Source of the DNA: Candidatus Moraniibacteriota bacterium
GTDB taxonomy: Bacteria > Patescibacteriota > Minisyncoccia > Moranbacterales > UBA1568
DNA length: 64,000 bases
Direction: 5' to 3'
NCBI GenBank assembly: GCA_016699875.1
Contig: CP064989.1
Location: 848,525 to 912,524, forward strand
The position numbers and the translations under genes were made by a program. Shown here piece after piece: positions 40,430 through 61,501 of this stretch. The notes beneath the pieces are model-generated. The model worked only from the letters and a program-made list of their open reading frames with translations. It ran no database searches and had not been told where the DNA came from. Position 1 is the first letter of the stretch. Each line of letters starts with the position of its first letter.

Positions 40430-42931
40430 ATGGAGACGACTTTTGATTTCAATCTGATTCTTATCCCACTTCTTTTTGTGGTCGGAGCGCTTGCTGCGCT
40501 TTCGGGAATCTTGCTGTTGATTCGGATGATTCTGTTTTTCAGATCACGGATCAATCGATCGCTTAATATGGACCTGGAAACGATTCAGGTGTCGAAGCCG
40601 GCTGAGCGAAAAGGGGAATCGTCGCGCCCGGATGAATGGAAGGAGGAAATTGGTGCAATGGAACAGCTTTTGGTGTCGCTCCAATCCTTCCGCGGGATGA
40701 AACACGGTTTTGATGTGTTCTCCGGTATGAAGCGGTTTTTCTATGGTCCGCCAGCCATTGTGTTTGAGGTGGCGAATCCGGAGAGAGATGAGGAGATGAC
40801 TTTTTTTCTTTCCATGCCGAGAAAGTTTCGTGAGAGTATCGAGAAACAGGTACACAGCTTTTTCCCAAACGCATTCGTTGAAAAGGTGAAGGACTACACT
40901 ATTTTCTCGCCGAAAGGATTCTCGTCCGTTTCAATACTTTCGCTTTCGAAAAGTCCGGCACTTCCCATACGGACGTATGAGTCACTCGATGTGGATCCGC
41001 TCAATGAGATTTCAAACTCTTTGAGTAAGCTCTCCAAAGAGGGTGAAGGCGCAGCGATGCAAATCATTCTCTCGCCGGCGGGCACCTCATGGCGTTCGGA
41101 GGGGCGGCGTATCGCACATGAAATGCAGCAGGGGAAGCGTTTGGCGGATGTGTATCACGAATCGCCGTTTTTGCACTTTCTCGGATCGGCATTCGCCTCT
41201 CTTTTTCATGCGGCGGTTCATGCGAACAAGCCTGCTGAACCGTTGAATGACAAGTCGCTTGTCCAGTTGACTCCGGAAGAGCAGGAGCTGGTGAAGTCAA
41301 TCGAGCGCAAGGTATCGAAGGCGGCGTTTCATGCCAATGTCCGATTGCTTGCCTCAGCTGCTTCTCAGGAGCGGGCAGATCAGATTCTCGCAACGATGGA
41401 GAATGCGTTTGCGCAGTTTGAATATCCGGACGCAAATCTTTTCCGGACGCGCCGTTTGCGGGATCGGTCGGCGAAGCCGGTGATTTTCGACTACATTTTC
41501 CGAGCATTTCGCCCGGAAACATCGTTTCTCTTGGGCGTTGAAGAGGTGGCGAGTCTTTTTCATTTTCCCATATCGACAACTGAGACGCCGAATATAAAAT
41601 GGCAGAAAGCCGGTTCCGCGCCGCCGCCGCCGAATATTCCGAAAGACGGCATCCTCTTGGGACACAATGATTATCGCGGCGTGAAGACGGATATCCGTTT
41701 AGCTGTTGCCGATCGTCGGCGACATCTCTACTGTATCGGACAAACCGGTGTTGGAAAGTCGGTATTCTTGCAGGAGATGGCGAAGCAAGACGTGCGTGAG
41801 GGACGGGGACTGTGCTTTATTGATCCGCATGGCGACGCAGTGCAAGATATCTTAGCGGCAGTGCCTCGGGAACGCGCCGAAGATGTCGTCTATTTCGATC
41901 CTGCTGATACGGAGCGCCCGTTCGGACTTAATATGCTTGAGTTCTCTCGGCCGGAAGAAAAGACTTTCGTCGTAAACGAGATGATCAATATTTTCGGGAA
42001 ACTTTACGACTTGAAACAGACGGGCGGACCGATGTTTGAGCAGTATATGCGAAATGCCATGCTTCTCATCATGGAAGACCCGACGACAGGTTCGACGCTC
42101 ATGGAGATATCGAAGGTGCTTGCTGACCCGGATTTCCGTCGGATGAAGCTCGACCGATGCAAGAATCCGGTAGTGTATGACTTCTGGGTGAAGGAGGCAG
42201 AAAAAGCAGGCGGTGAAGCGTCGCTTGCGAATATGGTGCCCTACATCACGTCGAAGCTCACGCCTTTCGTGGCAAATGACATGATGCGCCCGATTATCGC
42301 GCAACAGAAGAGTACTCTTGATTTCCGCACGCTCATGGATGAGAAGAAGATCATCTTACTCAATCTCTCAAAGGGAAAACTCGGGGAAATTAACAGTCAC
42401 TTGCTCGGCATGGTCGTGGTGGGGAAGATCTTAATGGCAGCGCTCTCGCGGGCGGATATCCCCGAAGCGGACCGAAAAGATTTCTCGCTCTACATCGATG
42501 AGTTTCAGAATGTAACTACGGACTCTATCGCGCAAATCCTCTCCGAGGCGCGAAAATACGGGCTCAATCTCATTATTGCGCACCAATTTATCGGACAGCT
42601 CTCGGAGGATATCTCGAAAGCGGTCTTTGGTAACGTGGGCTCAATGGTTTCATTTCGAGTTGGTCCCGAAGATGCGGAATTTCTTGAGAAGCAATTCGCA
42701 CCGATCTTCTCAGCTCGCGATCTGGTGAATGTTGACAATTACCGTGCTTTCGTCCGTCTTCTCATCAATAATCAGTCTACGAAACCGTTCAATCTCTCAG
42801 TCTATCCGCCAACATCCGGCGATGAGGAGCTTGCCGGGCATCTCAAGGAACTCTCGCGTCTTCGCTTTGGCCGCGACGCCGATATCGTCAATCACGAGAT
42901 AATGGAGCGGACGAAGCTGGCAGCTGCGTAG
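40430..42931 (+). CDS. type IV coupling protein-like ATPase (VirD4/TraD/TraG family) fused to an N-terminal TM + uncharacterised domain (833 aa)
   Basis: N-terminal TM is ILIPLLFVVGALAALSGILLLIRMILFF. Walker A GQTGVGKS is followed about 25 aa later by FIDPHGD (compare F-plasmid TraD GATGTGKS..IVDPNGD). Walker B-like YIDEFQN and a ..ARKYGLNLIIAHQ.. motif are present. The N-terminal ~430 aa are homologous to gene 58071..59369. The C-terminal ATPase is homologous to 59417..61501. Confidence 0.7.
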   Translation: METTFDFNLILIPLLFVVGALAALSGILLLIRMILFFRSRINRSLNMDLETIQVSKPAERKGESSRPDEWKEEIGAMEQLLVSLQSFRGMKHGFDVFSGMKRFFYGPPAIVFEVANPERDEEMTFFLSMPRKFRESIEKQVHSFFPNAFVEKVKDYTIFSPKGFSSVSILSLSKSPALPIRTYESLDVDPLNEISNSLSKLSKEGEGAAMQIILSPAGTSWRSEGRRIAHEMQQGKRLADVYHESPFLHFLGSAFASLFHAAVHANKPAEPLNDKSLVQLTPEEQELVKSIERKVSKAAFHANVRLLASAASQERADQILATMENAFAQFEYPDANLFRTRRLRDRSAKPVIFDYIFRAFRPETSFLLGVEEVASLFHFPISTTETPNIKWQKAGSAPPPPNIPKDGILLGHNDYRGVKTDIRLAVADRRRHLYCIGQTGVGKSVFLQEMAKQDVREGRGLCFIDPHGDAVQDILAAVPRERAEDVVYFDPADTERPFGLNMLEFSRPEEKTFVVNEMINIFGKLYDLKQTGGPMFEQYMRNAMLLIMEDPTTGSTLMEISKVLADPDFRRMKLDRCKNPVVYDFWVKEAEKAGGEASLANMVPYITSKLTPFVANDMMRPIIAQQKSTLDFRTLMDEKKIILLNLSKGKLGEINSHLLGMVVVGKILMAALSRADIPEADRKDFSLYIDEFQNVTTDSIAQILSEARKYGLNLIIAHQFIGQLSEDISKAVFGNVGSMVSFRVGPEDAEFLEKQFAPIFSARDLVNVDNYRAFVRLLINNQSTKPFNLSVYPPTSGDEELAGHLKELSRLRFGRDADIVNHEIMERTKLAAA

Positions 42932-43011
42932 CCATTGACACATTATACGACTTCATGGTATACATATCAGTAGCACTTTTTGAACCAAGAATTTAGAGAG
43001 GATAATGCATC

Positions 43012-43335
43012 ATGAACAATGCATTGGTAGTGTTGGTGGTTGCAGTGTCATGGGCGGTTCTTTTCTTTGCAGAGCAAGAAGCGATGCAAGTGTGGTCATG
43101 GATGATCATTGCGTCTGCTATTTTTGCGATGACTTCCCTCGGCTTTGTCTTTCTGGGATTCTTCGCTCGCCGAGGAAGGAGATACCCGTTCTTTATTGCG
43201 GCGGCCATCCCTCTGTTCCTTTCAGTTGCCCTCATGTTTGTCGGGCATGAGGAACACGAAGATCTTCTTGGTAAGATACGCGCTGAGAGGAGAATTCAAG
43301 AGAAAATATACATGATCCAACTTGGACGGATGTGA
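43012..43335 (+). CDS. hypothetical small membrane protein (3 hydrophobic segments)
   Basis: VVLVVAVSWAVLFFA, WMIIASAIFAMTSLGFVFLGFF and FFIAAAIPLFLSVALMFVG. Confidence 0.4.
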   Translation: MNNALVVLVVAVSWAVLFFAEQEAMQVWSWMIIASAIFAMTSLGFVFLGFFARRGRRYPFFIAAAIPLFLSVALMFVGHEEHEDLLGKIRAERRIQEKIYMIQLGRM

Positions 43336-43383
43336 ATATCGCATTTTGGAAACAGAGCATGACTTTTGTTGCTCTCAGGCTGG

Positions 43384-44865
43384 TCATTTTGACGAGCCTT
43401 TTTTCTTTGGGAGAAATGAGGTGAAACCAGCGAGATCTTCTCGGGTGAGGACACCAAGAAAGAAGAGTGTGGCAAGATAGCCGATGCCGAGGAAAGTGGC
43501 GGGAATGAGAAATGCGATGGAATGAGCGGGAAAGAGTTGAACAGCAAATAAGAGGAGTGCTCCTGCCAGGAGAATGCGCGCACCGTGTGAAATGCGGAAA
43601 GGTGTTCGGATGTATCTTTGCATGAGAGCGAGTGTTATCAGGGTGACAAGTATGGAGCTGAGAGTGGTTGACCAGGCGGATCCGACGATGCCGAAGTGCG
43701 GAACAAGGAATAGGTTGAGTGTTGCGTTCAATATGGTGCCGGAAATAGCCATCCACATAGCGAGGCGGGCATGTCCGAGTCCCATAAGTCCGGAAGAAAC
43801 TACATAAAAAACCGTGAGAAATGAAAGCCCGCCAATCAAGATACGGAAAGCGTCTACGGCTCCGGTGTACTGCGTTCCGAAGAAGAGTGTGAGTGTCGGC
43901 TTGGCATAGGCAAAGAGCAGGATGAAGAGCGGGAGGAGTATGATGCCGGCATAGCGGAGCGACTGTGACATGAGGCGAGAAACTTTCTCCGGATCGCCGT
44001 CGCTCTTGAGTTTGGCGAGTGCTGGCAGAAGCACGATGGAGAGCGCGTAGAAGAGATAGTACGGGAGACGTCCTACGGTGAGAGCGGCATTGTAGAAACC
44101 GGTTTGTACATCGTCATGAAGAATTGCTTTGACGAGGTAGAGATCGATGGAAATGAATATTTCATAGAAAAGCAGGAAGAGCGTGATAGGCCAGGCGGAT
44201 GACAGAAGGAGCTTCCAGGAAAACGACGACTCAGTTGTGGCATCTGCTGATCCTCTGAATGGGGCGGAAGATCGCCGATCGAGAAAGAGTCCGAGGAGAA
44301 ATGTACAAAGGGGAACGAGTATATATCCGGCAATAGCGCCATAGATGCCGAAGGCGAATACCATGGAGGCGATGAGTGTGATGCGCAAGACAGCCCTCGT
44401 CATTTTGAGGGCGGCTTGGGTTCGGAAACGGTGAATGCCAGTGAAGTAGTAAAAGTAGAAGGACGAAGCGGCGAAAGTGGGAATAATGAGAGACGAGAGG
44501 GCGAAGAGCGGTGTGAGTGACGGATCTCCCAAGAGGTATGCGATGAATGGTGAGGCGAAGAAGAATGTGATAGTGACACCTCCGATGAGGAAAAATTGGA
44601 GGCGCGCGCCGGCATGCTTTATGGTGCCAACCATGCGAGGCGACTTCTCGAAGTATTCGCTGAGGTATCGCGACATGGCCGTTGGGACGCCATTTCCGAT
44701 GAGGATGATGACGGTGGTGGTGAGGGTGACGACGAGTGCGTAGCGTCCGTAGTCGGCGGGTCCCAAGACGCGCCCAGCGACCGCGTGAATCACATAGCCG
44801 GAAATATTGAAGAGCACTTCGGCAAGCGTGAGCCAGATGAGTGATCGTGAAAGGGATATTGACAT
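43384..44865 (-). CDS. polysaccharide biosynthesis protein / Wzx-type oligosaccharide flippase (MOP superfamily)
   Basis: The protein is 493 aa with about 12-14 TM. The N-terminus (..LAEVLFNISGYVIHAVAGRVLGPADYGRYALVVTL..) is typical of the Polysacc_synt/Wzx family. Confidence 0.75.
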   Translation of the reverse strand: MSISLSRSLIWLTLAEVLFNISGYVIHAVAGRVLGPADYGRYALVVTLTTTVIILIGNGVPTAMSRYLSEYFEKSPRMVGTIKHAGARLQFFLIGGVTITFFFASPFIAYLLGDPSLTPLFALSSLIIPTFAASSFYFYYFTGIHRFRTQAALKMTRAVLRITLIASMVFAFGIYGAIAGYILVPLCTFLLGLFLDRRSSAPFRGSADATTESSFSWKLLLSSAWPITLFLLFYEIFISIDLYLVKAILHDDVQTGFYNAALTVGRLPYYLFYALSIVLLPALAKLKSDGDPEKVSRLMSQSLRYAGIILLPLFILLFAYAKPTLTLFFGTQYTGAVDAFRILIGGLSFLTVFYVVSSGLMGLGHARLAMWMAISGTILNATLNLFLVPHFGIVGSAWSTTLSSILVTLITLALMQRYIRTPFRISHGARILLAGALLLFAVQLFPAHSIAFLIPATFLGIGYLATLFFLGVLTREDLAGFTSFLPKKKGSSK

Positions 44866-45091
44866 AATAGAGGCGTTGTTGTAGTCTGGGAGCAGTTTTT
44901 TTGAGGTCCCTAATCTTCAATGGGAGATACGGAAGTGAAATCGCTACCTGTTTTTCTGCTCCTCTTGGTTATTGCCCTGATTGTCTTGCCGGCAGAAACC
45001 CTCGTTTTTCTAAGCGTGTTCCTTGATGTGATTTCTATTGTCGTGGGGATTATTTTGGTCGGCTCTTGTTTCTATGTAGCTCTTGCCGTCT

Positions 45092-45757
45092 TTATGGTCT
45101 CTCAGATGGTTGACAGCTTAGATATCGAGGAGATTGGAGAATAGCGAGAGAAATATCTGAGAAGACTGAACTTTTTTCGCGACTGGCATCAATTTCCATA
45201 AGATGCCAGTCCGATTTTTTTTGTTCGATGAGAGTGAATTTTTTGTGGAGGTATTCCAAGCCTTGTTCGGGGACGCGGCTGCGACGGAGAACTTCTTCGG
45301 GGGTGATGCGGAGATAGAAAGCGATATCGGGGTGAGGAACGAGTGTGGCAAGCGATGAGAAATATTTCTGCGGCGACGGCATTTTGTCGAGGCCGAGGTA
45401 TTCGAGGTTTATAATGGAGTCATAGAAGTATCGGTCCGAGAGAATAAACTCGATGCCACTTTGTTCGAGTTTTTTCAGAAAGAATCGGAAGCGGACGATA
45501 TCGATGAGGAGGAATATTTTCCGGAGCAAGAGAGAAAAAAACGAGACTTGCGTGACGGCGGATTCTTTTCCTGGCACGAAAGATTTTTCGCCTTTGAGGA
45601 GTCTGCTGATCTTGTTTGCCAGAGAAAACTCAATCGCATGAAACGTGGCAACTCGCCGCCCGTCAGCTTCGAGGCGCTCTTTGAGAAGAACGAGTTGCGT
45701 TGATTTTCCGGAGCCGTCTATGCCGGTAAAAGTAATGAGTTTCATGGTCGCGATCAA
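45092..45757 (-). CDS. tmk: thymidylate kinase-like P-loop kinase
   Basis: MKLITFTGIDGSGKSTQ is the dTMP kinase P-loop at the N-terminus. It is ~215 aa. The start is probably the MKLITF Met (codon near 45745). Confidence 0.65.
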   Translation of the reverse strand: MIATMKLITFTGIDGSGKSTQLVLLKERLEADGRRVATFHAIEFSLANKISRLLKGEKSFVPGKESAVTQVSFFSLLLRKIFLLIDIVRFRFFLKKLEQSGIEFILSDRYFYDSIINLEYLGLDKMPSPQKYFSSLATLVPHPDIAFYLRITPEEVLRRSRVPEQGLEYLHKKFTLIEQKKSDWHLMEIDASREKSSVFSDISLAILQSPRYLSCQPSERP

Positions 45758-45784
45758 ATGCTACAGGAATTTCTCTTGATGAAT

Positions 45785-47323
45785 TTAATACATAATAATC
45801 GAAACGGGCATCATGCGGGCAACCGGTTTTCCGACGCCATTTTCGCGAACACCCGCCATAATTTCGTCGATGTTTTTGTAGTGCGATGAATCCTGTTCGA
45901 TTACTTTCTTTGACCGACCATTGTAGAGCGTCACGCCGCGGCTTGCCAGTTTAGTATCGAGTGCGGATCGGTCATCGGGAATAATTGTTTCCGTTTTTTT
46001 GGCAACCTTCCCGGCACCGTGATTGCAGGAGAAAAAGCTGGACTCATTCGCGTCCGTGCCGACAACCAAATAGGCCTCCGTCGACATAGAAGAGGGGATG
46101 AAAGCCGGTTCGCCCGTCTCGTGAAATGTCGGATGGTCCGCCATGCGCGCGGGACCATACGCACGGCTCGTGCCATTTCGGTGCACCCACACATCTTTGC
46201 CAAAGTGCTCCTCTCGGGAAACGAGAATATGCGGCATATCGTAGAGAAGATCGAACTCCGGATCGCGACCGGTTTTTTCCTTGATGGTCTTTGATATTGT
46301 GTGCGCGATAACGGCGCGATTCGCATGAGCAAAGTTGGAGCAAGCATTTCGCGCTGCCATGTAGAGATCCGCCTCATCCCCGGTAAATTCTATAAGCGGC
46401 TCCTTCTTGCCGAAGTCCGATTCGCGGATTTTTCGAGCGATTGAGTTTATCGTGTTTCGATGCGGCGTCTTCCAGAGAGAGCGACCAATATTCATCATGA
46501 CAGCTGTTGACTTGTGCTCGCGTTTCTTTGCTGTGTACATGTACATGGTGTATTGTCCGAGGATTCCGGAGCCGCAGTGCACCATGAAGAGATAGTCACC
46601 GTTTTTGATATTGAATTTTTTCGCGAGCGCTTCATCCTCGATGCCGGTCACTTTCATAAGGTCGAGGAAATGGTTGCCGGCAGCGCCCAAAATACCGGAG
46701 CGGAATTGCGCTAAGAAGAGAAAGAACGGCGGGATAATATCGTAGATATCCTTTCGCGACAGCTCCTTTGAGAAGAAATTCCCCCGATCGAGAGAATTCA
46801 GCGCTTCATTTTCTGTTTCAATGCCGAAGTGATCAATGAGCGGCTGAATGCCGGCGCGGCAAATGTCCGCAATGAGTGGGAAGGGAAGATAGGTGCCAAG
46901 ATATGCTTTAGTCGGGATGCGCGGCACAAGCGCCTCGAAGACGCGGCGAATGTCCTCCGGCGAGAAATTTGATTCATTGAGGTTGGTACGGACGAGTCGC
47001 ATACCACAGGCGGGATCAGAATCATTGAGCTGCGGGAGAATTGCATTCTCCGAGGCAACAGTCGTACCGGTCGCATTCTTCCGCCCCGGCTTCGAATGTA
47101 CATCCGCCATCGCCGCAATGTGATGAAACAGCCCGTCATTTGAGGCGACGCTTTCGAGCTGATGCATCGTCTCCTCATTCGGCATGAGCTTTTCGGATAC
47201 ATGAAACACGACCGGCACGTTCATCTTGTCCGTCTTCATTTTACGTTTGTGGGGGGAAATTTCTTTGGTTGATTCACTTGACATATACTCTAATTTATGC
47301 AATGATGCTTTCGTCGCCGACAA
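45785..47323 (-). CDS. rtcB: RNA-splicing ligase RtcB
   Basis: Conserved metal and GMP-site motifs are present: ..AAMADVHSKPG.., ..SDPACGMRLV.., ..VHRNGTSRA.., ..FIPSSMSTEAYLVVG.. and ..SCNHGAGKV... The start is likely an internal Met (MKTDKMNVPV). Confidence 0.85.
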   Translation of the reverse strand: MSATKASLHKLEYMSSESTKEISPHKRKMKTDKMNVPVVFHVSEKLMPNEETMHQLESVASNDGLFHHIAAMADVHSKPGRKNATGTTVASENAILPQLNDSDPACGMRLVRTNLNESNFSPEDIRRVFEALVPRIPTKAYLGTYLPFPLIADICRAGIQPLIDHFGIETENEALNSLDRGNFFSKELSRKDIYDIIPPFFLFLAQFRSGILGAAGNHFLDLMKVTGIEDEALAKKFNIKNGDYLFMVHCGSGILGQYTMYMYTAKKREHKSTAVMMNIGRSLWKTPHRNTINSIARKIRESDFGKKEPLIEFTGDEADLYMAARNACSNFAHANRAVIAHTISKTIKEKTGRDPEFDLLYDMPHILVSREEHFGKDVWVHRNGTSRAYGPARMADHPTFHETGEPAFIPSSMSTEAYLVVGTDANESSFFSCNHGAGKVAKKTETIIPDDRSALDTKLASRGVTLYNGRSKKVIEQDSSHYKNIDEIMAGVRENGVGKPVARMMPVSIIMY

Positions 47324-47371
47324 CGATCGGTTTTTCTGTTAATTTCACAAACAAGTTCTGGAGAAACAGCC

Positions 47372-47815
47372 ATGAGACCTTTCTTCTGTTTTGATAGCAA
47401 CAAGGAAATATTTATTATGGGTTTCAGAGAGGAGGATGCTTGTAAAAAGGCTGTTATGCTTGTCAGAGAAGGTGCGCAAGAGGTATTTTGCCGACTTTAT
47501 CCTACGCGTGACAAGCGTCTTAAGACTACTTGGGAAAATTCACTTTGGGACAACCCTGACGACGATAGTCCATTCAGATTATTTAGATTCAAACATAATT
47601 TTTCTGAAGAAGGAGTTTCTCAAGCGTGGGCACTGTTTTGGCTTTCCCGAGAGAACTATTTTCTTTTAATCAGTTTTCAAAGGAGTTTGGGGAGAGGTTT
47701 TGTTCCCGGATATCGTTTCAAGTTTCGCCTTACAAAATGTGGGCGGATAGTCCTAAGGCGGAGGAAGGGGAAGATGGACTGTCAGAAAGAAATAAGAAAG
47801 CTTTTAGCCTCTTAG
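47372..47815 (+). CDS. hypothetical protein
   Basis: ORF only. Its 3' end overlaps the convergent GT4 gene by a few nt. Confidence 0.3.
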   Translation: MRPFFCFDSNKEIFIMGFREEDACKKAVMLVREGAQEVFCRLYPTRDKRLKTTWENSLWDNPDDDSPFRLFRFKHNFSEEGVSQAWALFWLSRENYFLLISFQRSLGRGFVPGYRFKFRLTKCGRIVLRRRKGKMDCQKEIRKLLAS

Positions 47816-49083: not shown

Positions 49084-49110
49084 AATTCGTTTGTTTGGAT
49101 AAGATGTTCT

Positions 49111-49398
49111 ATGCTTGACAATTCACGATTTAATTCAAAAAGAGAGGAATTTTCAATGTTAATGAAATTCGTCCTGAATAGTAGTCATGAAGCACTTTTT
49201 GTTCAACATTTCTCTGCCAGCGCGGCTGTTCCCAGGGTTGGGGACATTGTTGGAAATTTCCCGCTAGGAAGTAGGAATGAATATTTGGTGATACGGGTCA
49301 AATGGGTTCTTGATGACTCTATCGAAGCAAGAGAGAACAATGCCCTTATTAAGAATATGCGGGACGTGGAAATAACTCTCGTTTCGTATATCCCTTAA
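49111..49398 (+). CDS. hypothetical protein (95 aa)
   Basis: ORF only. Confidence 0.3.
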   Translation: MLDNSRFNSKREEFSMLMKFVLNSSHEALFVQHFSASAAVPRVGDIVGNFPLGSRNEYLVIRVKWVLDDSIEARENNALIKNMRDVEITLVSYIP

Positions 49399-49494
49399 CT
49401 TCGAGATCAACTCGAAAAAACATGTTTGTCTACTGGGCGGTGAAGCAAATGTGGATCCGCCTTTATTGTTCCTTATTCTTCATTTCCTCTCTTA

Positions 49495-50342
49495 GAACCT
49501 GTTTACAATCTTTTCAACAACAATCGAGCAAAACTTAAAACCATCATCTGTAAGCTCGAATCCAGTGTCCGTTCGCAATTCTTCCAGAGCCTTCGGCATT
49601 TCTCCAGCCAGGAGAAGCTTCTCTCGACCACCCAGCGCTGAGGAAGAACGGCAAACGTATGCAATTCGTTTCGTTTAGCTACTCCCACTTCCGCACCGAT
49701 ACATGCTTTGATCGCTTTGGCGAAGTTTTCTCCGGTATAACTACCATCAGTCAAGAGTTTCTCCACCCGTGAAAGGTGTTTTTTGTTTGCCTTGACGGCT
49801 TGGATAGCTCCATTTCGATCAGTGACGTTAGCAGTGGTTACCGTGAACGCATGCGGCAATCCGTTGGTGTCAACGAGAATATGTCGCTTGATACCGGAAA
49901 CTTTTTTCCTGCATCATAACCTTTTTCTCGAGCCGTATCTGTATTCTTGACACTTTGAGCATCAACGATGCAGAAACTGGTTTTGCATTGTTTGCCATTT
50001 TTCATACGTTCTTGTTCGACCAATTTTTTTTAAGACTTGCTCAAGCATACTCTCTGTCTGTTTGTTTTTTCGTTCCTTCCAGACAAGGAAGTGTCGATAG
50101 ACACTCTGCCATTTTGGATAATCCTTGGGAAGTGCCCTCCATTGGCAACCCGTGACCAGAATGTAGAGCAGAGCGTTGAATACGTCATAGGAATCAAGTG
50201 TCTTTGGTTTGGTTCTCTTCCTGGTTGATTCGAGAAATGGTCTGATGTGTTCGAATTGTTCTCGGGTTATGTCGCTTGGATACATGGTTCTTTTGGTTTG
50301 AGGATTATGTCCTCAGTGTACCAGAAGATTGTAAACAGGTTC
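49495..50342 (-). mobile_element. IS5-family insertion sequence (ISL2/IS1031-like, ~848 bp) with 18-bp terminal inverted repeats and TTA target-site duplication
   Basis: The left end gaacctgtttacaatctt (49495..49512) is the exact reverse complement of the right end aagattgtaaacaggttc (50325..50342). Flanking TTA is found on both sides. An internal DDE transposase (GCQWRALPKDYPKWQSVYRHF, IVDAQSVKNTDTAREKGYDAGKK, WVVERSFSWLEKCRRLWKNCE) is encoded in three frames. Confidence 0.75.
49503..50285 (-). pseudogene. IS5-family DDE transposase, interrupted by two frameshifts located at poly-A runs
   Basis: It spans three table ORFs (49962..50285, 49838..50023 and 49503..49859, all minus). Junction 1 is at ttaaaaaaaattgg and junction 2 at ggaaaaaagttt. 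Each needs a +1 shift to restore the conserved protein (..LEQVLKK|LVEQER.. and ..GYDAGKK|VSGIKRHILVDTNGL..). Confidence 0.75.
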
Positions 50343-50710: not shown

Positions 50711-50771
50711 AGGAATTTCCTGGTCGTATGTGTACTGGATTGGGCAAAAAGGGAAATGACGAAAATATGCG

Positions 50772-53878: not shown

Positions 53879-54056
53879 AAGAAATCGGTAGCGAGCAAGC
53901 CAATGAAGGGTTAGGATTTGTCTTTGCGAGGAGTGTCAAGTTCGAAATTACAGGTTCAAAATAAACTCCATTTTTCGACACAATATGAGGTCTCTCTGTT
54001 TGTTTTGCTCCGCGTTGCTTCTGCGGGGCTTATGGGTTTGGATCTGAATCTTTTTG

Positions 54057-55025
54057 TTATTTTTCAGTTTCTTCTCTTTTTGCAGAGAGGTTTTTCTTTG
54101 TCAGGTAGAGCTGTTCTTCGATGAGTCTTCGATTGGACTTGACCATATCGGCAAGGAGAGCGAAGACAACAAATTGGAGACCGATGATGAAAAAGAGCGC
54201 GGAGAAAAAGAGATAGTTCCGATACGGAGAGATCTTAAAATCTTGTACGTAGAAACCGAAAAATATGAAGAAGAGGAGAACGGCGATGCCGATTAGAATG
54301 AATCCGGGAATGCCAAAGAACTTCATCGGGCGGACATCGCGAACGGCTTTGACGATGATGCGCGAGCTTTGCCGGATATAATTCACGATACTCTTCGTCA
54401 TTTTGGATTTCCGCTCGGCAAAATAGGTGACGGAAACGGGAATCCAGACGATCTTGAGTCCCTTGCCAATGGCATCAATGATAACCTCCTGTGTGTAGGT
54501 GAAATTTTCGAGGAGGTTGAGACGGAGTAGTGACTCGCGGCTGTAGGTCCGGAAGCCGCATGTGAGATCCTGTATGGGTGTTTTGAGGAAGCCGGAAATG
54601 AGGCGTGCGGCAAGTCGGTTGAGGCGGTCTTTGATGAGGGGAATGTTTTTTGCGGCATGCTCTCCGAATCGATCGGCGCTTACGATGTCGGCTGTTCCGG
54701 CAAGTACGGGTGCAAGAATCGTGCCGATGTCGTTCGGATCAAACTGCCCGTCGGCATCGATATTCACCATAACGTCGGCATTGGCTTCAAGTGCGGCTTC
54801 AACCGAGGTGCGGAAGGCTTTCCCGAGTCCGCGATTCCGCTGATGCACGATGACGCGATTGGCGCCAGCCTCTTGAGCGATTTCGCTGGTGTGATCGGTT
54901 GATCCGTCATCCACCACGTGCACGACGATTTCGTCGATACCTTTGAGTGTTCGAGGTATTCTCCGTATGGTTTCCCCGATTTTCTCCGCCTCATTGTACG
55001 CGGGAATGTTTACGATAAGTTTCAT
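54057..55025 (-). CDS. GT2 polyprenyl-phosphate glycosyltransferase (DPM1/ArnC/GtrB-like) with C-terminal TM anchor
   Basis: GT-A motifs are present: ..VNIPAYNEAEKI.., ..VVDDGSTD.., DAD (..MVNIDADGQFDP..) and ..NRGLGKAF... Two C-terminal TM helices follow, as in GtrB/ArnC. Confidence 0.8.
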   Translation of the reverse strand: MKLIVNIPAYNEAEKIGETIRRIPRTLKGIDEIVVHVVDDGSTDHTSEIAQEAGANRVIVHQRNRGLGKAFRTSVEAALEANADVMVNIDADGQFDPNDIGTILAPVLAGTADIVSADRFGEHAAKNIPLIKDRLNRLAARLISGFLKTPIQDLTCGFRTYSRESLLRLNLLENFTYTQEVIIDAIGKGLKIVWIPVSVTYFAERKSKMTKSIVNYIRQSSRIIVKAVRDVRPMKFFGIPGFILIGIAVLLFFIFFGFYVQDFKISPYRNYLFFSALFFIIGLQFVVFALLADMVKSNRRLIEEQLYLTKKNLSAKREETEK

Positions 55026-55086
55026 AAAGAGAGATTGAGAGGACTTAGAATCGAGAAGATCAAAGAGGGGAGAAAGGGAGATATCA

Positions 55087-55317
55087 TCACTGCTTTTCTA
55101 CGAGTTTGCTGAACTCGAAGCAGGCAACTTTGCAACGGGCATTCCCGGATCCGTTCTTTGCGATATCCTGCTGGCACTCGAGCGCTGCACCAAAACAGCG
55201 ATTGCGGCTCTCTCGGACATATGACCAGTCTATTTGATAGTGGAAAAAATTCAACAGAAAACTTCCGACGACTGCGGCGCCGACAACCCAAATGGCGAGT
55301 CGAAGGAGGTGGAACAT
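55087..55317 (-). CDS. hypothetical small membrane-anchored Cys-containing protein (76 aa)
   Basis: N-terminal hydrophobic segment LLRLAIWVVGAAVVGSFLL and 4 Cys. It is preferred over the overlapping table ORF 55022..55291 in another frame. Confidence 0.3.
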   Translation of the reverse strand: MFHLLRLAIWVVGAAVVGSFLLNFFHYQIDWSYVRESRNRCFGAALECQQDIAKNGSGNARCKVACFEFSKLVEKQ

Positions 55318-55341
55318 ATGCGTAATACTCTGTGCTGATTG

Positions 55342-56634
55342 TTATCGCCCGATGCCTTTGTAAATGATGCCCGATGTTCGGAAGAGATTCTTGTCAAAGG
55401 CATTCTTGCCGTCGATAAAGACTTTGATTCCGTGCTTCTTGAGAAGTGCCGGCGTGATAGCCTCTTTGAATTCGGTGTGGTCGGTCGCCAGGATGAGCGC
55501 GGTGGATTTTTTGAGGATGGCATCGAGGGATTTCAGGCTTGATCGATCAAGAATGTGCGGGTCGAAGGTCTCGACTTCTGCGGAGTGCTTCTTGAGATGC
55601 TCGATGATACGGACGGACGGCGATTCGCGTACGTCGTCGATATTTGCCTTGTAGGCGATGCCAAGCACGCCGACGGTTGTTCCGTTGAGAGGGAGCTTTA
55701 CGGCATTCAAGGCATCCTGTAAGAGTTCGACGGTATAGCCCGGCATGTCGTTGTTGATTTCCCGTGCAAGTCGCAGAAACTTGTGATCGAACCCGGCTTT
55801 CTTGGCGCGCTCGATCAAATAATATGGATCGACGGGGATACAGTGTCCGCCCACGCCGCAGGAAGGGAAATGCGCAAGGAACGAGAAAGGCTTGGTGGCG
55901 GCGCCGCGGATGACGTCGGCGACATCAATACCGAGTCGGTCAAAAGATCGGGCGAGTTCATTTACGAAGGCGATATTGATATCGCGAAAAGAATTCTCGA
56001 CGACTTTGACCGCTTCCGCTTCGCGGATGGATTTCATCGGGCGGATCTCGCCATCGACGATGGATCGATAGAACTCGAGTGCACGCTTCAATCCGGTTGC
56101 ATCGAGTGAACCGACGACGCGGGGGATGTTGGTGACATTCCACACGGCATCTCCCGGATTGATGCGCTCGGGGCAGTGAGCGAGAAACACGTCTTTTCCG
56201 ATAGCGTGTCCGGCTTGCTTGAAGATGGGGACAACTATTTCTTCGGAAACACCCGGATTGACGGTTGATTCAAGGACGACGAGCGCGCCTTTTTTGAGAT
56301 GATCGGCGATGGTTTTCATGGCGCCGATAACCGGAGTGAGATCCGGAGTGTAGAGTTCGTCTACCGGTGTCGGGACGCACACAAGAATGATGTCTGCCTG
56401 TTCGAGTGTATGCGGATCGGAAGAAGCCGGGAACGGATATTGCGGGAGATGCTCTTCGAGATATTGGTCTTCGATCGGACTTTTCCCTTGGCTGATGAGA
56501 GAATTCTTTTTTTCATCGAGATCAAATCCGATGACTTCGTATCCTCGTTCTTTGGCTCGAACGGCAAGCGGCAATCCGACATATCCCAATCCGACAATGC
56601 CAACGGCGATATTTTTTTTCTCGACTTCTTTCAT
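55342..56634 (-). CDS. nucleotide-sugar dehydrogenase (UDP-glucose / UDP-N-acetylmannosamine 6-dehydrogenase family)
   Basis: Rossmann motif GIVGLGYVGLPLA. The catalytic Cys lies in ..GVGGHCIPVDPYYL... The C-terminal UDP-binding domain has ..VLGIAYKANIDDVRESP... Confidence 0.85.
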   Translation of the reverse strand: MKEVEKKNIAVGIVGLGYVGLPLAVRAKERGYEVIGFDLDEKKNSLISQGKSPIEDQYLEEHLPQYPFPASSDPHTLEQADIILVCVPTPVDELYTPDLTPVIGAMKTIADHLKKGALVVLESTVNPGVSEEIVVPIFKQAGHAIGKDVFLAHCPERINPGDAVWNVTNIPRVVGSLDATGLKRALEFYRSIVDGEIRPMKSIREAEAVKVVENSFRDINIAFVNELARSFDRLGIDVADVIRGAATKPFSFLAHFPSCGVGGHCIPVDPYYLIERAKKAGFDHKFLRLAREINNDMPGYTVELLQDALNAVKLPLNGTTVGVLGIAYKANIDDVRESPSVRIIEHLKKHSAEVETFDPHILDRSSLKSLDAILKKSTALILATDHTEFKEAITPALLKKHGIKVFIDGKNAFDKNLFRTSGIIYKGIGR

Positions 56635-56793
56635 AATGGCGCATGAGCAGATTATTCTTCCTGTCCCTCACCACTCATTGTACGAAAAAAGAGCGGAGAC
56701 GTCGAGATGAATGCCGGGGAACTTGCGGGGGAGGTGTTTTCCGGTGCTTCTTAGTGGCATTCTCTCTTCGGGAAGAGAGAGCGGTTATCGGTC

Positions 56794-56823
56794 TTGACAA
56801 AACATTGTATTGTGCGCTAATAT
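56794..56823 (+). promoter_or_regulatory. sigma70-type promoter candidate (TTGACA - 18 nt - TAATAT) for the HTH regulator gene
   Basis: cTTGACAaaacattgtattgtgcgcTAATATt lies about 35 nt upstream of ATG 56859, in a divergent intergenic region. Confidence 0.4.
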
Positions 56824-56858
56824 TATTTCACTCAATTTTATCCGAAGAATGCATCATT

Positions 56859-58013
56859 ATGACAGCCCGAGACACGAGAGCGGAGGGGAAAATTGCTCAA
56901 AAATCGCTCCAGAGCCGAAAGCAGGTGTTTGCTAAGAAAACAGAGAAATCCTCTCGCAAAGAGGTGATTTCCCGAGGGTTCTATGGAACGGCATTTCACC
57001 GTTTCCTTCATTCCATATCGCCGCGGGCGGTTGCGATTGTTTCGGCTCGCTATGGAGCTGGCGGAAAAGAACCGATGACGCTCGAAGAGATCGGGAAAAC
57101 CTATGGCATTACGCGCGAGCGGATTCGTCAAATTATTTCGGTGCTTCTTGGAAATGTTCGCGCGCGTCGGTACCCGGCATCGCTCGAGGAGGTGTCAAAG
57201 CGCATGGAATCGACGCTCAGTGGCAAAAGTGGTATTATGGAGAGGGAAGAGTTCTTCGACACGATAGCCGGAACGGATGCGAGGGAGCGTGGAGCAGTGC
57301 GGTTTTTTCTTGCGGTGCTATCAGAGCGCTTCCGATCGCTTGAGAGCGCGTCTATGGTTCCCGCTCTGGCGCTTGTTTCTTTTGAATTGGAATTGTGGAT
57401 TGCAGTAAACACGGCGGCGAAATCGGTGCTGGTGGAGAACGGTGCATCGCTTCCCGAAGCGGAGTTTCTGAAGCGAGTCAGTAAGGATTCTTCACTAAAG
57501 GGAATTTCTCAGAAAACAATATTGGATTTTCTTGCTGTATCGGAAGGCTGTCGCAAGAACCCATTTGGTCAGTGGGGACTTCCCGAATGGAGCGATATCT
57601 GCCCGCGAGGAACTCGCGAGCGCGCGTACTTGGTGGTACATGCTGAAGGAAAACCACTTCACTTCCGCGAGATAGCGGCAAAGATTGACCTGTCCGGACT
57701 GCAGAAACCGGGAAAGGTGACGCATCCGCAAACGGTGCACAATGAACTGATCAAAGATAAGCGATTTGTCTTGGTGGGTCGAGGCACATACGCACTCGTC
57801 GAGTGGGGGTTTCGTCGCGGAACCGTTCGCGAAGTGGCGGAGGAGATTCTTCGGGAGCGAGGCGTACCGATGAAACGTGAAGAATTGGTAGCTGAAGTGC
57901 TCAAAGTTCGCGATGTGAAGGCGTCGACGGTGGTAATCAACTTGAATGCATTTTTCGTTCGTACGCCGGAAGGCGCATATTGTCTCAAGGAATCGAAGAG
58001 GAGAGCTAAATAA
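56859..58013 (+). CDS. putative regulator: sigma-70 region 4-like HTH plus C-terminal HARE-HTH-like winged helix
   Basis: ..MTLEEIGKTYGITRERIRQII.. is a sigma70_r4-type HTH. The C-terminal ..FVLVGRGTYALVEWGF.. resembles the HARE-HTH / RpoE-delta-like motif. Internal Met73 was chosen over the table start 56643, whose N-terminus overlaps the divergent gene. Confidence 0.5.
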   Translation: MTARDTRAEGKIAQKSLQSRKQVFAKKTEKSSRKEVISRGFYGTAFHRFLHSISPRAVAIVSARYGAGGKEPMTLEEIGKTYGITRERIRQIISVLLGNVRARRYPASLEEVSKRMESTLSGKSGIMEREEFFDTIAGTDARERGAVRFFLAVLSERFRSLESASMVPALALVSFELELWIAVNTAAKSVLVENGASLPEAEFLKRVSKDSSLKGISQKTILDFLAVSEGCRKNPFGQWGLPEWSDICPRGTRERAYLVVHAEGKPLHFREIAAKIDLSGLQKPGKVTHPQTVHNELIKDKRFVLVGRGTYALVEWGFRRGTVREVAEEILRERGVPMKREELVAEVLKVRDVKASTVVINLNAFFVRTPEGAYCLKESKRRAK

Positions 58014-58070
58014 GAGGGATCTATTGATTCGATTGCGGAATGTCGTTAGGGATTTTCAACGAACTATCCC

Positions 58071-59369
58071 ATGGGCACTATTATACTGCAGAGTTTTTCG
58101 GATATGTCGGAGGCGTTCCTGTCTATTTGGAACGTCATGGGAGAGGTATGGTTTCTGGTGCTTCCGCCATCTCTCTATTTTATCTTCAAGTTTCTCTGGA
58201 TGGACCACATCCAGAATCAATACATAGAGAGTACAAAGACAGTGCTTCTCGAGATTATTCCGCCTCGCGATATCGAAAAGAGTCCCAAGGTGATGGAGAC
58301 GATATTCGATGGTATCGCGGGCGTTGATAAGGGTCCGACGGTCGTTGAGACGTATGTGCAAGGGTATCTCCCGCCGCTTATCAGTCTGGAGATAGTGGGT
58401 GACGGCGTCGATGGTACGCATCTCTACGTGCGGACACCGGTCGTATTTCGCAATCTCATTGAAGCGTATTTCTACGCTCAGTATCCGAATGTTGAAATAA
58501 TGGAGGTGTCTGATTATGTTGATCGGATTCCGAAAGGCGCGCCGAATCGCGATTGGGATCTCTTTGGAGCTGATATCGAATTCACTAAGCCGGATCCCTA
58601 TCCAATCAAAACTTACCACTACTACGAGGAGGATGTTTCGGGGAAAATGATCGATCCGCTCGCGGGGCTGTTTGAAAGTTTTGGTAAGTTGCCGCCGGGG
58701 CAGAAGCTCTGGTTTCAGATGATTATCACACCGCTCAAACCAGACTACTACAATACCGGAAAGGCGCTTCTTGATGAAATTATCGGACGCGCTACCAAGG
58801 TGAAACCGACATCTGTGCTGGGCGATCTCACATCCGGCATCGGAGAAATCGCGACGGCGGTGCCGAAGGCATTCTTTGGTCCGGTGGAATTTGCATCTTC
58901 GAGTGACAAACCGGAGAAAAAAGATTTTCTCGAATACCAGTTGACACCGGTTGAGAAGGAGGTAGTAAAGGCACTTGAAGCGAATATCGGGCGCAATGTG
59001 TTCGGATCCCGCCTTCGCATGATTTATATCGGCAAAAAGAAGGGATTTGACAAATCTTTTGTCTCGGCATTTTTTGGCGGGCTTAAGCAATTCAATGACT
59101 TCAACTTAAACGGATTCAAACCGAACGACGCGTCGAAGACTTACGCGAACTATTTGATGACCGATATTCGTATGCGTTATCGGCAGCGCAAGCTCCTCCG
59201 TCGGTATAAATTCCGCGATCCGGATTCCCCGGTTCCGATGCTGGCGCTGAGTACGGCGGAACTGGCGACGATTTTTCATATTCCTGACATGAACGTTGTG
59301 GCGCCGTCTTTGCCTCGTATTTCGGCGAAGCGGGGTTCTGCTCCGCAGAATTTGCCGATACAATTGTGA
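58071..59369 (+). CDS. membrane protein homologous to the N-terminal (non-ATPase) half of the 40430 T4CP-like protein
   Basis: N-terminal TM VWFLVLPPSLYFIFKFLWM. It shares conserved blocks with 40430..42931: PPLISLEIVG../PPAIVFEVAN.., YPIKTYHYYE..WFQMIITP / LPIRTYESLD..MQIILSP, and LSTAELATIFHIPD..SAPQNLP / LGVEEVASLFHFPI..SAPPPPNIP. Confidence 0.6.
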   Translation: MGTIILQSFSDMSEAFLSIWNVMGEVWFLVLPPSLYFIFKFLWMDHIQNQYIESTKTVLLEIIPPRDIEKSPKVMETIFDGIAGVDKGPTVVETYVQGYLPPLISLEIVGDGVDGTHLYVRTPVVFRNLIEAYFYAQYPNVEIMEVSDYVDRIPKGAPNRDWDLFGADIEFTKPDPYPIKTYHYYEEDVSGKMIDPLAGLFESFGKLPPGQKLWFQMIITPLKPDYYNTGKALLDEIIGRATKVKPTSVLGDLTSGIGEIATAVPKAFFGPVEFASSSDKPEKKDFLEYQLTPVEKEVVKALEANIGRNVFGSRLRMIYIGKKKGFDKSFVSAFFGGLKQFNDFNLNGFKPNDASKTYANYLMTDIRMRYRQRKLLRRYKFRDPDSPVPMLALSTAELATIFHIPDMNVVAPSLPRISAKRGSAPQNLPIQL

Positions 59370-59416
59370 TAATGTCGGTTTTTCTCGGGTGTCCCTCGAC
59401 TTTTTGATGTTCTCCT

Positions 59417-61501
59417 ATGTCTGACAATATTACCTATTTCGCCAAGACGAACTTCCGGAACGAAGATCGGGTTTTCGGTATCAAAGCCGATGATCGTCGT
59501 CGGCATATGTATGTCATTGGGAAAACGGGCATGGGGAAGACTAATATGCTCGAGAATCTGGTTATTCAAGATATTCAACACGGACACGGCGTCGCTTTCA
59601 TTGATCCGCATGGCGATACGGCGGAGAAGCTGATTCGCGCTATTCCGCCGTCGCGCGTCAATGACGTCATTTACTTCAATCCGTCAGATCAGGATTTCCC
59701 GGTAGCATTCAATGTGATGGAACATGTGTCGGCGGAGTACCGGCACCTGGTTGCTTCCGGCTTGGTCGGCGTTTTCAAGAAGATTTGGGCGGACTCTTGG
59801 GGACCGCGCCTCGAGTATATCTTGCGCAATGCGATTTTGGCGCTTCTGGAATATCCGGGGAGCACGCTTTTGGGTGTGATGCGCATCCTGGTTGACAAGG
59901 AGTATCGCAAACGTGTCGTCGACAAGGTGACGGATCCGGTCGTGAAGTCATTTTGGGTTGATGAATATACCAAGTGGAATGACCGCGTGTTGCAGGAAGT
60001 GATTGCACCGATCCAAAACAAAGTCGGGCAATTCCTCTCGAGTTCGCTCATCCGAAATATTGTCGGGCAGACCGTCTCGTCATTCGATGTTCGCGATATC
60101 ATGGACCGTCGGAAGATTCTTATCATGAATCTTTCGAAGGGGCGTATCGGGGAAGACAATAGTGCTCTTATCGGCGCAATGATGATTACCAAGATACAGC
60201 TTGCGGCGATGGGGCGTGTGGACATTCCGGAAGATGATCGCCAGGACTTCTATCTTTATGTTGATGAGTTTCAGAATTTCGCAACGGAGTCATTTGGTAA
60301 TATTCTTTCCGAGGCGCGGAAATATCGGCTGAATTTGATTCTTGCAAACCAGTATATTTTGCAAATCGAAGAATCGGTTCGAGATGCGATCTTTGGCAAT
60401 ACGGGAACGATTATCAGTTTTCGTGTTGGAGCGACTGATGCGGAATTCCTTGAAAAAGAGTTCTCCCCGATTTTCTTGGCAACGGATATTGTAAACTTGG
60501 AAAAGTACCATATCTATCTCAAGCTCATGATTGACGGCATCTCCGGGGATGCTTTCAGTGCGACGACGCTTCCTCCGATCGATCTGCCGGAGAGTGATGA
60601 AAATGCTGAGAAGGTGGTTCGTATTTCTCGGGAGCGGTACGCGGCCAAGAAGCAAGATGTCGAAGATAAAATTCGCCGGTGGACTGGTATCTTGACTGAA
60701 GAGGAGCGGCAGAATTTTGAAGAGCGAATGCGAATGCGCGCCGAAACGACTCTTGCTAAAAAGGCTCCCGTTGAAATCGATGGCTCTCTGTCGACGCCGC
60801 CTTCCTCATCGGTGCGCCAGCAGGAATTCTTCAGGAGCTCTTCTCATGACAACCGATCTACTCCTGATCGAATATCTCGTCATGAATCCCCCTCGCGCAT
60901 ACCAACCGGTCATCCTTATCGGAATTCCGCTCTTCCAAATGAACTGACGATTTCCTCGGATTCGCCGTCTCTAACGGGAACGACGAGCGCTTCCATGCAA
61001 TCAGCTGATCGATTGCGACGAGACCCATCTGAGCATTCGGGAAATGAGATATCATCTCCCAGTTCTCGACCTCTGTACAAATCCGTATGTGCAGTATGTG
61101 GTGTCGAGATTGACGTTCCGTTCAAGCCCGATGGGAAGCGTCCGACATTTTGTCGAGAGCACTTCAAAAGTTTTCAGAAGACGATTGCTCGTACGAGAAC
61201 AGGCGTGGACATGCAGTCCTCCCAAGCATCGCCCGAGAAACGTTCGGAGCATGTGCGGGACGATCATTCCGAGGAAAATCCAGCGTACTCCCGCAGAGAA
61301 GATGCGCCATCGGAAGTGTCGCGCGAACGCCATTCGTTTGCTCCAAAGGCGTATGTCTCGATGGAGACGCCGCTTTCTTTGGGGCAGATGCAATATATCG
61401 CTCCAAAACCTTTTAAGCGTAGCAAGGAGAAAATCGATTTGGGAGAAGTTCGCAGGATTCTTTCGTCCGAACGAACCGCTGATGGCCATTCAGATTCTTA
61501 G
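59417..61501 (+). CDS. type IV coupling protein-like ATPase (VirD4/TraD/TraG family) with S/R-rich C-terminal tail containing a zinc-ribbon-like motif
   Basis: Walker A GKTGMGKT, then FIDPHGD. Walker B-like YVDEFQN. ..ARKYRLNLILANQ.. is present. Beyond about aa 480 the sequence is low-complexity S/P/R-rich. It contains CAVCGVEIDVPFKPDGKRPTFCREHF, a C-x2-C..C-x2-H pattern. Confidence 0.7.
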   Translation: MSDNITYFAKTNFRNEDRVFGIKADDRRRHMYVIGKTGMGKTNMLENLVIQDIQHGHGVAFIDPHGDTAEKLIRAIPPSRVNDVIYFNPSDQDFPVAFNVMEHVSAEYRHLVASGLVGVFKKIWADSWGPRLEYILRNAILALLEYPGSTLLGVMRILVDKEYRKRVVDKVTDPVVKSFWVDEYTKWNDRVLQEVIAPIQNKVGQFLSSSLIRNIVGQTVSSFDVRDIMDRRKILIMNLSKGRIGEDNSALIGAMMITKIQLAAMGRVDIPEDDRQDFYLYVDEFQNFATESFGNILSEARKYRLNLILANQYILQIEESVRDAIFGNTGTIISFRVGATDAEFLEKEFSPIFLATDIVNLEKYHIYLKLMIDGISGDAFSATTLPPIDLPESDENAEKVVRISRERYAAKKQDVEDKIRRWTGILTEEERQNFEERMRMRAETTLAKKAPVEIDGSLSTPPSSSVRQQEFFRSSSHDNRSTPDRISRHESPSRIPTGHPYRNSALPNELTISSDSPSLTGTTSASMQSADRLRRDPSEHSGNEISSPSSRPLYKSVCAVCGVEIDVPFKPDGKRPTFCREHFKSFQKTIARTRTGVDMQSSQASPEKRSEHVRDDHSEENPAYSRREDAPSEVSRERHSFAPKAYVSMETPLSLGQMQYIAPKPFKRSKEKIDLGEVRRILSSERTADGHSDS

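Follow-up and report, generated by a model that had tools for sequence, protein, structure and literature searches.

The window analysed here, a 64-kb stretch of contig CP064989.1 from a Candidatus Moraniibacteriota bacterium, is ordinary chromosome of a member of the Moranbacteria, which belong to the Candidate Phyla Radiation (CPR, Patescibacteria) with its tiny genomes, and it carries two paralogous modules built around an ATPase of the type IV coupling protein (T4CP) class. In paralog A, a transmembrane (TM) helix, an N-terminal domain and the ATPase are fused in a single gene, while in paralog B the same two halves lie in separate adjacent genes, B1 and B2, an arrangement already proposed in an initial annotation made from the sequence; the features are compiled in Table 1. 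All three open reading frames (ORFs) described there are present, and the motifs stand in the places given: GQTGVGKS (amino acids, aa, 437-444), FIDPHGD (463-469), YIDEFQN (688-694) and ARKYGLNLIIAHQ (707-719) in A, and GKTGMGKT (35-42), FIDPHGD (61-67), YVDEFQN (281-287) and ARKYRLNLILANQ (300-312) in B2, with Walker A and Walker B intact in both ATPases. In the predicted model of A, the nucleotide-binding domain carries an all-helical insertion (aa ~510-623). The protein B2 extends beyond its ATPase into a tail of 274 aa, rich in Ser, Arg, Glu and Pro, which contains a treble-clef zinc finger; its pattern in the window is CAVC-x17-CREH, with His as the fourth ligand, and a CxxC...CxxC pattern occurs in 63 of the 74 complete B2 orthologues.

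Table 1. Features of paralogs A and B, of their neighbours and of the type IV pilus cluster, in coordinates of the 64-kb window
Feature	Position	Strand	Remarks
ORF A	40430..42931	+	833 aa; fused paralog: TM helix, DUF8128 and T4CP-type ATPase
A, single N-terminal TM helix	40454..40540	+	aa 9-37; hydropathy 2.62; long helix 8-47 in the predicted model
A, DUF8128 (PF26449), putatively VirB4-N-terminal-domain-like	40562..41644	+	PF26449 precomputed on homologues of 64-93% identity; 22% identity to B1; fold taken from the B1 model
A, T4CP-type nucleotide-binding domain	41657..42829	+	Walker A 41738-41761; Walker B 42491-42511
ORF B1	58071..59369	+	432 aa; N-terminal half of the split paralog: hydrophobic helix aa 26-44 and DUF8128
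ORF B2	59417..61501	+	694 aa; ATPase half of the split paralog
B2, ATPase	59429-60646	+	Walker A 59519-59542; Walker B 60257-60277
B2 tail, treble-clef zinc finger	61067..61168	+	aa 551-584; Pfam zf_Tbcl_2 37.7 bits (cut-off 27); TIGR04272 40.6 bits (cut-off 36)
Sigma-70 region 4 helix-turn-helix (HTH) and HARE-HTH protein	56859..58013	+	Upstream partner of B1; Pfam
1100-aa protein	35673..38975	+	2-3 central TM segments, no known domain; first gene of the block ending in A
DUF5663 protein	39008..39346	+	112 aa; its place between the 1100-aa gene and A is conserved (synteny)
Charged/coiled protein	39347..39916	+	189 aa; position variable, absent or replaced in other genomes
Acidic protein	39940..40401	+	153 aa; just upstream of A; ~145-aa counterpart conserved in the other Moranbacteria examined
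Type IV pilus cluster (PilB/PilC/pilin), not a type IV secretion system	14912-19559 (~19600)
PilB-type ATPase with MshEN domain	14912-16570		Type IV pilus cluster
PilC-type platform protein	16567-18021		C-terminal SH3 domain; type IV pilus cluster
Pilin-like genes with N-methylation motifs	18018-18458, 18993-19559		Type IV pilus cluster

The homology of the two modules extends over both halves. BLASTP aligned the ATPases of A and B2 with 42% identity over 416 aa (E 2e-118), and the N-terminal halves of A and B1 with 22% identity over 334 aa (E 1e-16), a value far above chance, so that the kinship claimed for these halves stands. The split in paralog B is clean and falls within the linker: B1 ends in ...APQNLPIQL and B2 begins with MSDNITYFAKTNFRNEDRVFGIKADDRRRH, and the linker of A at this point is ...PPPNIPKDGILLGHNDYRGVKTDIRLAVADRRRH, reading ...PPPNIPKDG opposite the end of B1. 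No third copy of the pair was found in the 64-kb window. The TM helix of A is followed by the basic residues RSRINRS; according to the positive-inside rule, the remainder of the protein should be cytoplasmic, suggesting an N-out/C-in topology. With its TM helix, VirB4-like N-terminal domain and ATPase, the protein is laid out like a VirB3/VirB4 fusion whose motor is T4CP-like.

The N-terminal half of ~370 aa, a domain of ~400 aa that had been left without a name in the initial annotation, corresponds to Pfam DUF8128 (PF26449). This assignment is based on the precomputed annotation of protein clusters (P0001 and P0121) that share 93-94% identity with A and B1 and of the genes of the complete Moranbacteria genome CP064994.1. 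An AF2 model of B1 of medium confidence (pLDDT 67, pTM 0.64) folds like the N-terminal domain of VirB4, and judged by this predicted structure, DUF8128 is a putative VirB4-N-domain-like module of a T4CP subclass. A literature search produced no paper that mentions DUF8128.

The ATPase belongs to the VirB4/VirD4 group, with sequence favouring a T4CP and structure unable to separate T4CP from VirB4. Profile searches with the Pfam families suggested earlier gave a divided answer: TrwB_AAD_bind (26.8 and 38 bits in the two copies, cut-off 20.5) and TraG-D_C (23.1 and 25.5 bits, cut-off 22) were passed in both, DUF87 exceeded its cut-off in B2 only, and T4SS-DNA_transf was passed in neither, with 13.7 bits in A (cut-off 20.1) and no match in B2. 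TrwB and DotL were the top PDB matches, with the single sequences as well as with the profile, TraD also ranked among the best Pfam/PDB-level matches, and HerA was weaker. Within NCBIfam, the best match was SXT_TraD with 48-50 bits, far under the family cut-off of 366, and neither ATPase reached the cut-offs of the TraD/TraG/VirD4 families; the VirB4, HerA and CedB/CedD models were much weaker still than the TraD families, VirB4_CagE scoring 13-16 bits against a cut-off of 643, and the Pfam VirB4 families CagE_TrbE_VirB and TraC_F_IV gave no match at E<=0.1. At the level of the fold, the predicted ATPase model of A aligned with TrwB over 348 aa and was indistinguishable from the VirB4 C-terminal domain, with DptH as the second-best match and FtsK clearly more distant. 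Neither in the Pfam, NCBIfam and PDB comparisons nor in the fold comparison did HerA or FtsK come out ahead, the outcome that had been named beforehand as speaking against a T4CP; the initial assignment of both ATPases as T4CP-like is thus supported at the level of sequence.

A and B are ancient paralogs and not the product of a local fusion or fission. Among the best 120 A-type clusters, proteins of 800-850 aa at 64-93% identity, every one is fused, and all of the best 120 B1-type clusters are split, with ~420-455 aa; a search with the DUF8128 profile gave the same impression, the best 150 of 3,455 representatives at 50% identity being nearly all 400-580 aa long and lacking the ATPase half. 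In 81 of the 82 B-type loci, B1 closes with a stop codon before B2 begins, and the remaining locus is not an in-frame fusion. A scan of GTDB genome contigs comprised the best 80 loci, all of Moranbacteria type, and carries no taxonomic breadth. In the complete genome CP064994.1 both paralogs are present but ~370 kb apart, and the spacing of ~15 kb in the window is therefore incidental. The proposal of a genuine fusion/fission pair within 20 kb holds in that a homologous fused/split pair is indeed present, but not in its local sense. A recent fusion or fission involving adjacent duplicates of this genome, for which the short distance of 15 kb might have spoken, is contradicted by the low identity of the copies, by the fixation of each state across the lineage, by the distance in CP064994.1 and by fused forms elsewhere, and we consider it refuted by the data.

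Fused DUF8128 and T4CP proteins are also found in Gracilibacteria, Altimarinota and Bacillaceae; the fused state is therefore widespread and probably ancestral, and in Parcubacteria the B type seems to have undergone an old fission that became fixed. Across Moranbacteria the ATPases are ~78-80% identical and the N-terminal domains ~50-55%, alike in both paralogs, and the conservation of the ATPases suggests an important cellular role. Between the two loci of the window lies a transposase of the IS4/IS5 family on the minus strand (49503-50285), which is spread over two ORFs (DUF4096 part 49962-50285, DDE part 49503-49859) and is frameshifted or decayed; it may be related to the rearrangement that placed A and B within 15 kb. 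As an aside on the survey, many records of metagenome-assembled genomes titled 'uncultured Bdellovibrionales' (L004, L006, L009 and many more) hold loci of Moranbacteria type; in L004, B1 is 94% and the B2 ATPase 99% identical to the window, and the label looks wrong.

Each paralog has its own separate, conserved set of partners. Directly upstream of B1, in 80 of 82 B-type loci, lies a gene whose product combines a sigma-70 region 4 HTH with a HARE-HTH domain. In the window its ORF (56643-58013) opens at 56643, but translation probably starts at the conserved M73 (56859), leaving the first 72 codons untranslated. The sigma-like domain matches region 4 of the primary sigma factors SigA/RpoD (E 6e-19 in a PDB profile search), and the protein may act as a regulator or as a DNA adaptor. 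It was also considered as a hidden relaxase, and this was rejected: hhalign against a Replic_Relax protein was negative, and the PDB profile gave only sigma region 4. The triad of the sigma4/HARE-HTH gene, the DUF8128 gene and the ATPase gene with zinc finger recurs, with different flanks, in two other Parcubacteria. Paralog A, on the other hand, closes a block (window 29970-42931) consisting of holB, an FtsQ-like gene, two PMT genes on the opposite strand, a gene for a membrane protein of ~1000-1270 aa, DUF5663, an acidic protein of ~145 aa and A, whose order and sizes are conserved in three other genomes. The counterparts of the 1100-aa protein occupy the same position in other Moranbacteria with 1010-1273 aa, and similarity was detected only to the one in L001 (44%), while the 153-aa acidic protein gave tblastn matches of 33-52% identity in L001, L084 and L085. 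Division genes do occur nearby in Moranbacteria, namely DivIC, with PpiC and HtrA, downstream of B and the FtsQ-like gene upstream of the A block, and in CP064994.1 SMC lies upstream of B; a role in division or segregation was nevertheless rejected because this linkage is confined to Moranbacteria, the triads of the other Parcubacteria being flanked by SecDF and by RpiB-Rpe.

The remainder of the window contains genes for RNase J, UvrA, UvrC, CofD, a MurA-type transferase, MreB, DNA polymerase III delta', RtcB and thymidylate kinase, besides many glycosyltransferases and the type IV pilus cluster. Every 2-kb bin shows a positive GC skew (0.06-0.29), and the plus strand carries most of the genes, consistent with a single replichore and a leading-strand gene bias.

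A link to conjugation emerged outside the CPR. When PLSDB was searched by tblastn with the B2 ATPase, 503 plasmids were matched at 27-41% identity, and a weak tblastn match of B1 (E 0.07) pointed to a plasmid of Shouchella clausii (NZ_CP012476.1), which encodes an 883-aa 'DUF87' protein; its gene is followed immediately by a Replic_Relax gene and, at a greater distance, by a conjugal transfer gene. By hhalign, the A-type profile matched both halves of this protein (probability 100, E 4e-46, 655 columns), and the DUF8128 profile alone gave a probability of 98.4 (E 5e-15). The 64.7-kb plasmid NZ_OX419568.1 of B. subtilis encodes a 913-aa protein of the same architecture (N-terminal half, probability 95), followed downstream by genes for Replic_Relax, a conjugal transfer protein, a TcpE-family protein and a VirB4-like ATPase, and a smaller B. 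subtilis plasmid (CP121709.1) holds a split form, a 272-aa DUF8128-like gene (probability 96.6) and a 412-aa ATPase. Since this split pair (L102 3962-6128) is 81% and 89% identical to the halves of the fused S. clausii protein (L104 4752-7403), a recent fission, fusion or gene disruption must have taken place in the Firmicutes. With the S. clausii protein as query, many proteins of 800-900 aa with precomputed PF26449 were retrieved from Bacillaceae and Paenibacillus. The DUF8128 and ATPase unit, fused or split, beside Replic_Relax and type IV secretion system (T4SS) genes on Bacillaceae plasmids is a new link; the gene in Gracilibacteria is a chromosomal orphan among housekeeping genes. An experimental study of the Bacillaceae proteins was not found, and pLS20 was discarded as the nearest plasmid model, as it carries a classical 786-aa VirD4 with two TM helices.

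The nearest ATPase sequences outside the CPR are stand-alone, soluble proteins of ~400 aa from proteobacterial islands and plasmids, with 41-47% identity to B2. Three of them, 41-46% identical to B2 and from high-GC bacteria, represent an island-borne branch of the same subfamily: one adjoins a P4-type integrase, AlpA and an 1165-aa protein (L089 2383-3618), one a DUF4238 protein (L088 7968-9248), and one, on a Sulfitobacter plasmid, recombinase and transposase genes (L101 5983-7170). By tblastn, no DUF8128 gene was detected beside these stand-alone ATPases. Relatives of the ATPase also occur on 12 contigs of IMG/VR, but a phage or mobile origin was dismissed, the CPR-like contigs looking chromosomal and the others carrying stand-alone island ATPases. 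Two such 'viral' contigs encode AsnS, a Na/Pi transporter and an M23 peptidase and resemble CPR chromosome; their B-type ATPase genes (L086 7956-9254 and L087 7950-9698) are 55-70% identical, and as no DUF8128 was detected upstream by tblastn, their partner may lie elsewhere or have been lost.

The genes of the window appear to be examples of the orphan T4CPs described by Quinonero-Coronel et al. (2025, Microb Genom; PMC12102498), who counted 5,713 VirD4-type T4CP homologues in 2,918 Patescibacteria genomes, about two orphan chromosomal homologues per genome, with only 148 of them near virB4. In the supplement, a Moranbacteria assembly (GCA_000989885.1) shows two CONJScan t4cp1 matches far from a VirB3-TrsD-VirB4 cluster, and the authors raised an exaptation of the orphan T4CPs as possible. 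The initial description of duplicated, chromosomal and possibly repurposed T4CPs is sound in its first two points; repurposing, a possibility already raised in that paper, may have occurred.

Taken together, A and B probably belong to a family of membrane-anchored motors of the T4CP class, which is widespread in Patescibacteria, occurs on Bacillaceae plasmids as well and would serve a membrane channel, most likely that of a T4SS, a reading to which we assign a probability of roughly 0.55. Each unit comprises an N-terminal membrane helix, followed by DUF8128, predicted to be cytoplasmic, and by the T4CP-type ATPase with its all-helical insertion as modelled. The function that we infer for the CPR is the following: the ATPases would assemble into a hexameric ring on the cytoplasmic side of the membrane, held by the TM helices, and DUF8128 would dock this ring to membrane partners in the way the VirB4 N-terminal domain docks to VirB3 and VirB8. 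Driven by ATP, the ring would recruit a substrate and feed it into the channel, and this substrate may be a nucleic acid or a nucleoprotein, for whose recruitment the zinc finger and the HTH partner of B would be suited. The most likely channel would be the relaxase-less chromosomal T4SS, the VirB3-TrsD-VirB4 cluster, located elsewhere in Moranbacteria.

Several observations weigh against this reading. Classical T4CPs such as TrwB of R388, TraD of F and SXT, VirD4 and DotL have two N-terminal TM helices attached directly to the nucleotide-binding domain, but A has one TM helix followed by the ~370 aa of DUF8128. The closest relatives of the ATPase domain are the stand-alone, soluble proteins, with no T4SS nearby. 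The resemblance of DUF8128 to the VirB4 N-terminal domain is drawn from a model with a pLDDT of 67, and hhalign of the DUF8128 profile against the sequence of R388 TrwK showed no signal (probability 0.2); the likeness to VirB4 is therefore structural only. No relaxase, VirB4, VirB6 or VirB8 was found among the major window ORFs scanned against Pfam, no VirB3, VirB6 or VirB8 gene beside either paralog in the window, and no T4SS, relaxase or channel gene near either copy in eight CPR contexts, which bears out the early remark that both loci are chromosomal and have no such neighbours. Furthermore, the sigma4/HARE-HTH partner of B is unrelated to Replic_Relax. From the published side, 2,474 virB4 genes stand against 2,918 T4CP-bearing genomes in Patescibacteria, relaxases are rare and nearly absent in the CPR, the supplement lists T4CPs but no VirB4 for Woesebacteria assemblies, and in Southlakia epibionticum the T4SS is essential and the T4CP homologue non-essential (PMC12102498).

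Much of this would suit a housekeeping DNA pump that descends from conjugative coupling proteins, works independently of any T4SS and imports, exports or segregates DNA with partners of its own, for B the sigma4/HARE-HTH DNA binder and the zinc-finger tail, for A the block with the 1100-aa membrane protein. Its molecular picture is the same as that of the T4SS-serving motor, the two differing in the channel used. The pump would account for the strong conservation of the ATPases across Moranbacteria, for the embedding of the genes among housekeeping genes in three CPR groups, for conserved partners of which none is a T4SS gene, and for the predicted nucleic-acid-binding accessories of B; it would also fit T4CP homologues that are commoner than VirB4 and almost never near it, and a T4CP that is dispensable where the T4SS is essential (PMC12102498). 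On the other hand, a docking domain like that of VirB4 points to a partner complex, the Bacillaceae plasmid proteins of like architecture are encoded within conjugation loci, and outside Moranbacteria, where the flanks differ, there is no tie to division genes or to those of uptake (ComEC). With a single TM helix contributed by each subunit, the pore would be a poor one, and we know of no classical T4CP that crosses the membrane without a channel. On balance, we regard the pump as rather unlikely. Somewhat more doubtful is a broader proposal, in which the DUF8128-linked T4CPs form a third, deep branch of the VirB4/VirD4 group that has kept a VirB4-type N-terminal domain, and both paralogs are core, T4SS-independent DNA motors in the CPR. 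If this were true, they would be a 'missing link', coupling proteins having arisen from a VirB4-like ancestor, and the B triad and the A block would be two unrecognised translocation machines of ultra-small bacteria.

The sequence of TM helix, N-terminal domain and C-terminal ATPase could also indicate divergent VirB4-type ATPases, which would energise secretion or pilus assembly and not act as substrate receptors. The fold of the ATPase is compatible with this idea and the profile matches to VirB4 families are negligible; we judge it improbable. Least credible among the functional proposals is a remnant of a mobile or integrated conjugative element, or an anti-phage defence ATPase like HerA or DptH: its traces are weak PADLOC matches to mad8 (49 bits) and HerA, the DptH fold match, the P4-type integrase and AlpA adjoining stand-alone relatives, and the IS5-family fragment between the loci. 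Both genes, however, keep fixed syntenic positions on the chromosome in every genome fetched and are under strong purifying selection, their base composition is that of the rest of the window, and no integrase, nuclease, methylase or Sir2-type partner was found among the scanned window ORFs; a defence system in particular was rejected on context and conservation.

Patescibacteria account for a large share of bacterial diversity and depend on hosts. Their T4SS is essential yet relaxase-less, and orphan coupling-protein genes are among the few handles on the cargo that is transported. The VirB4-like docking domain, the plasmid homologues and the partner sets make the questions of channel and substrate testable, the more so as the Bacillaceae plasmid proteins, with the whole architecture, are open to genetic manipulation, and they bear on the evolution of T4CPs from VirB4-like ATPases. 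For annotation, DUF8128 may be described as the VirB4-N-domain-like module of a T4CP subclass, and the B1 genes of split pairs, currently labelled 'hypothetical' or 'membrane protein', should be grouped with the adjoining ATPase gene.

Compared with known systems, A and B share with the T4CPs a P-loop domain of the FtsK/HerA/VirB4/VirD4 group and, in the predicted model, the all-alpha insertion within it, although BLASTP against TrwB gave only ~40-50 bits. They differ from classical T4CPs in the absence of relaxase or T4SS linkage, a linkage that their Bacillaceae plasmid homologues do have. To the VirB4 proteins (TrwK of R388, VirB4 of T. pseudethanolicus) and to the split TrsD plus TrsE/VirB4 there is no sequence-level similarity, and the supplement of PMC12102498 records a genuine TrsD-VirB4 pair at another place in Moranbacteria assemblies. 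The stand-alone ATPases, annotated as 'type IV secretion system DNA-binding domain-containing' or DUF87, differ from B2 in their length of only ~400 aa, in adjoining integrases or transposases and in having no neighbouring DUF8128 gene detected by tblastn. The Bacillaceae plasmid proteins are like the CPR pair in their two-domain architecture and in occurring as fused and split forms, but their ATPases are only 23-31% and their N-terminal domains 20-27% identical to the CPR proteins, and they reside on plasmids, in linkage with Replic_Relax, TcpE-family and VirB4-like genes; the genes of the CPR, by contrast, are orphans on the chromosome. A close parallel is provided by the orphan T4CPs of 2025, which, like A and B, number about two per genome, are chromosomal, lie away from virB4 and lack relaxases (PMC12102498). 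In the passages of that paper considered here, the N-terminal domain, the fused/split paralogy, the partners and the Bacillaceae plasmid link do not figure, and the literature search yielded no paper on any of these subjects; new here are the VirB4-like DUF8128, as predicted, the tie to plasmid genes in the position of coupling proteins, the ancient paralogy of A and B, and their partner sets.

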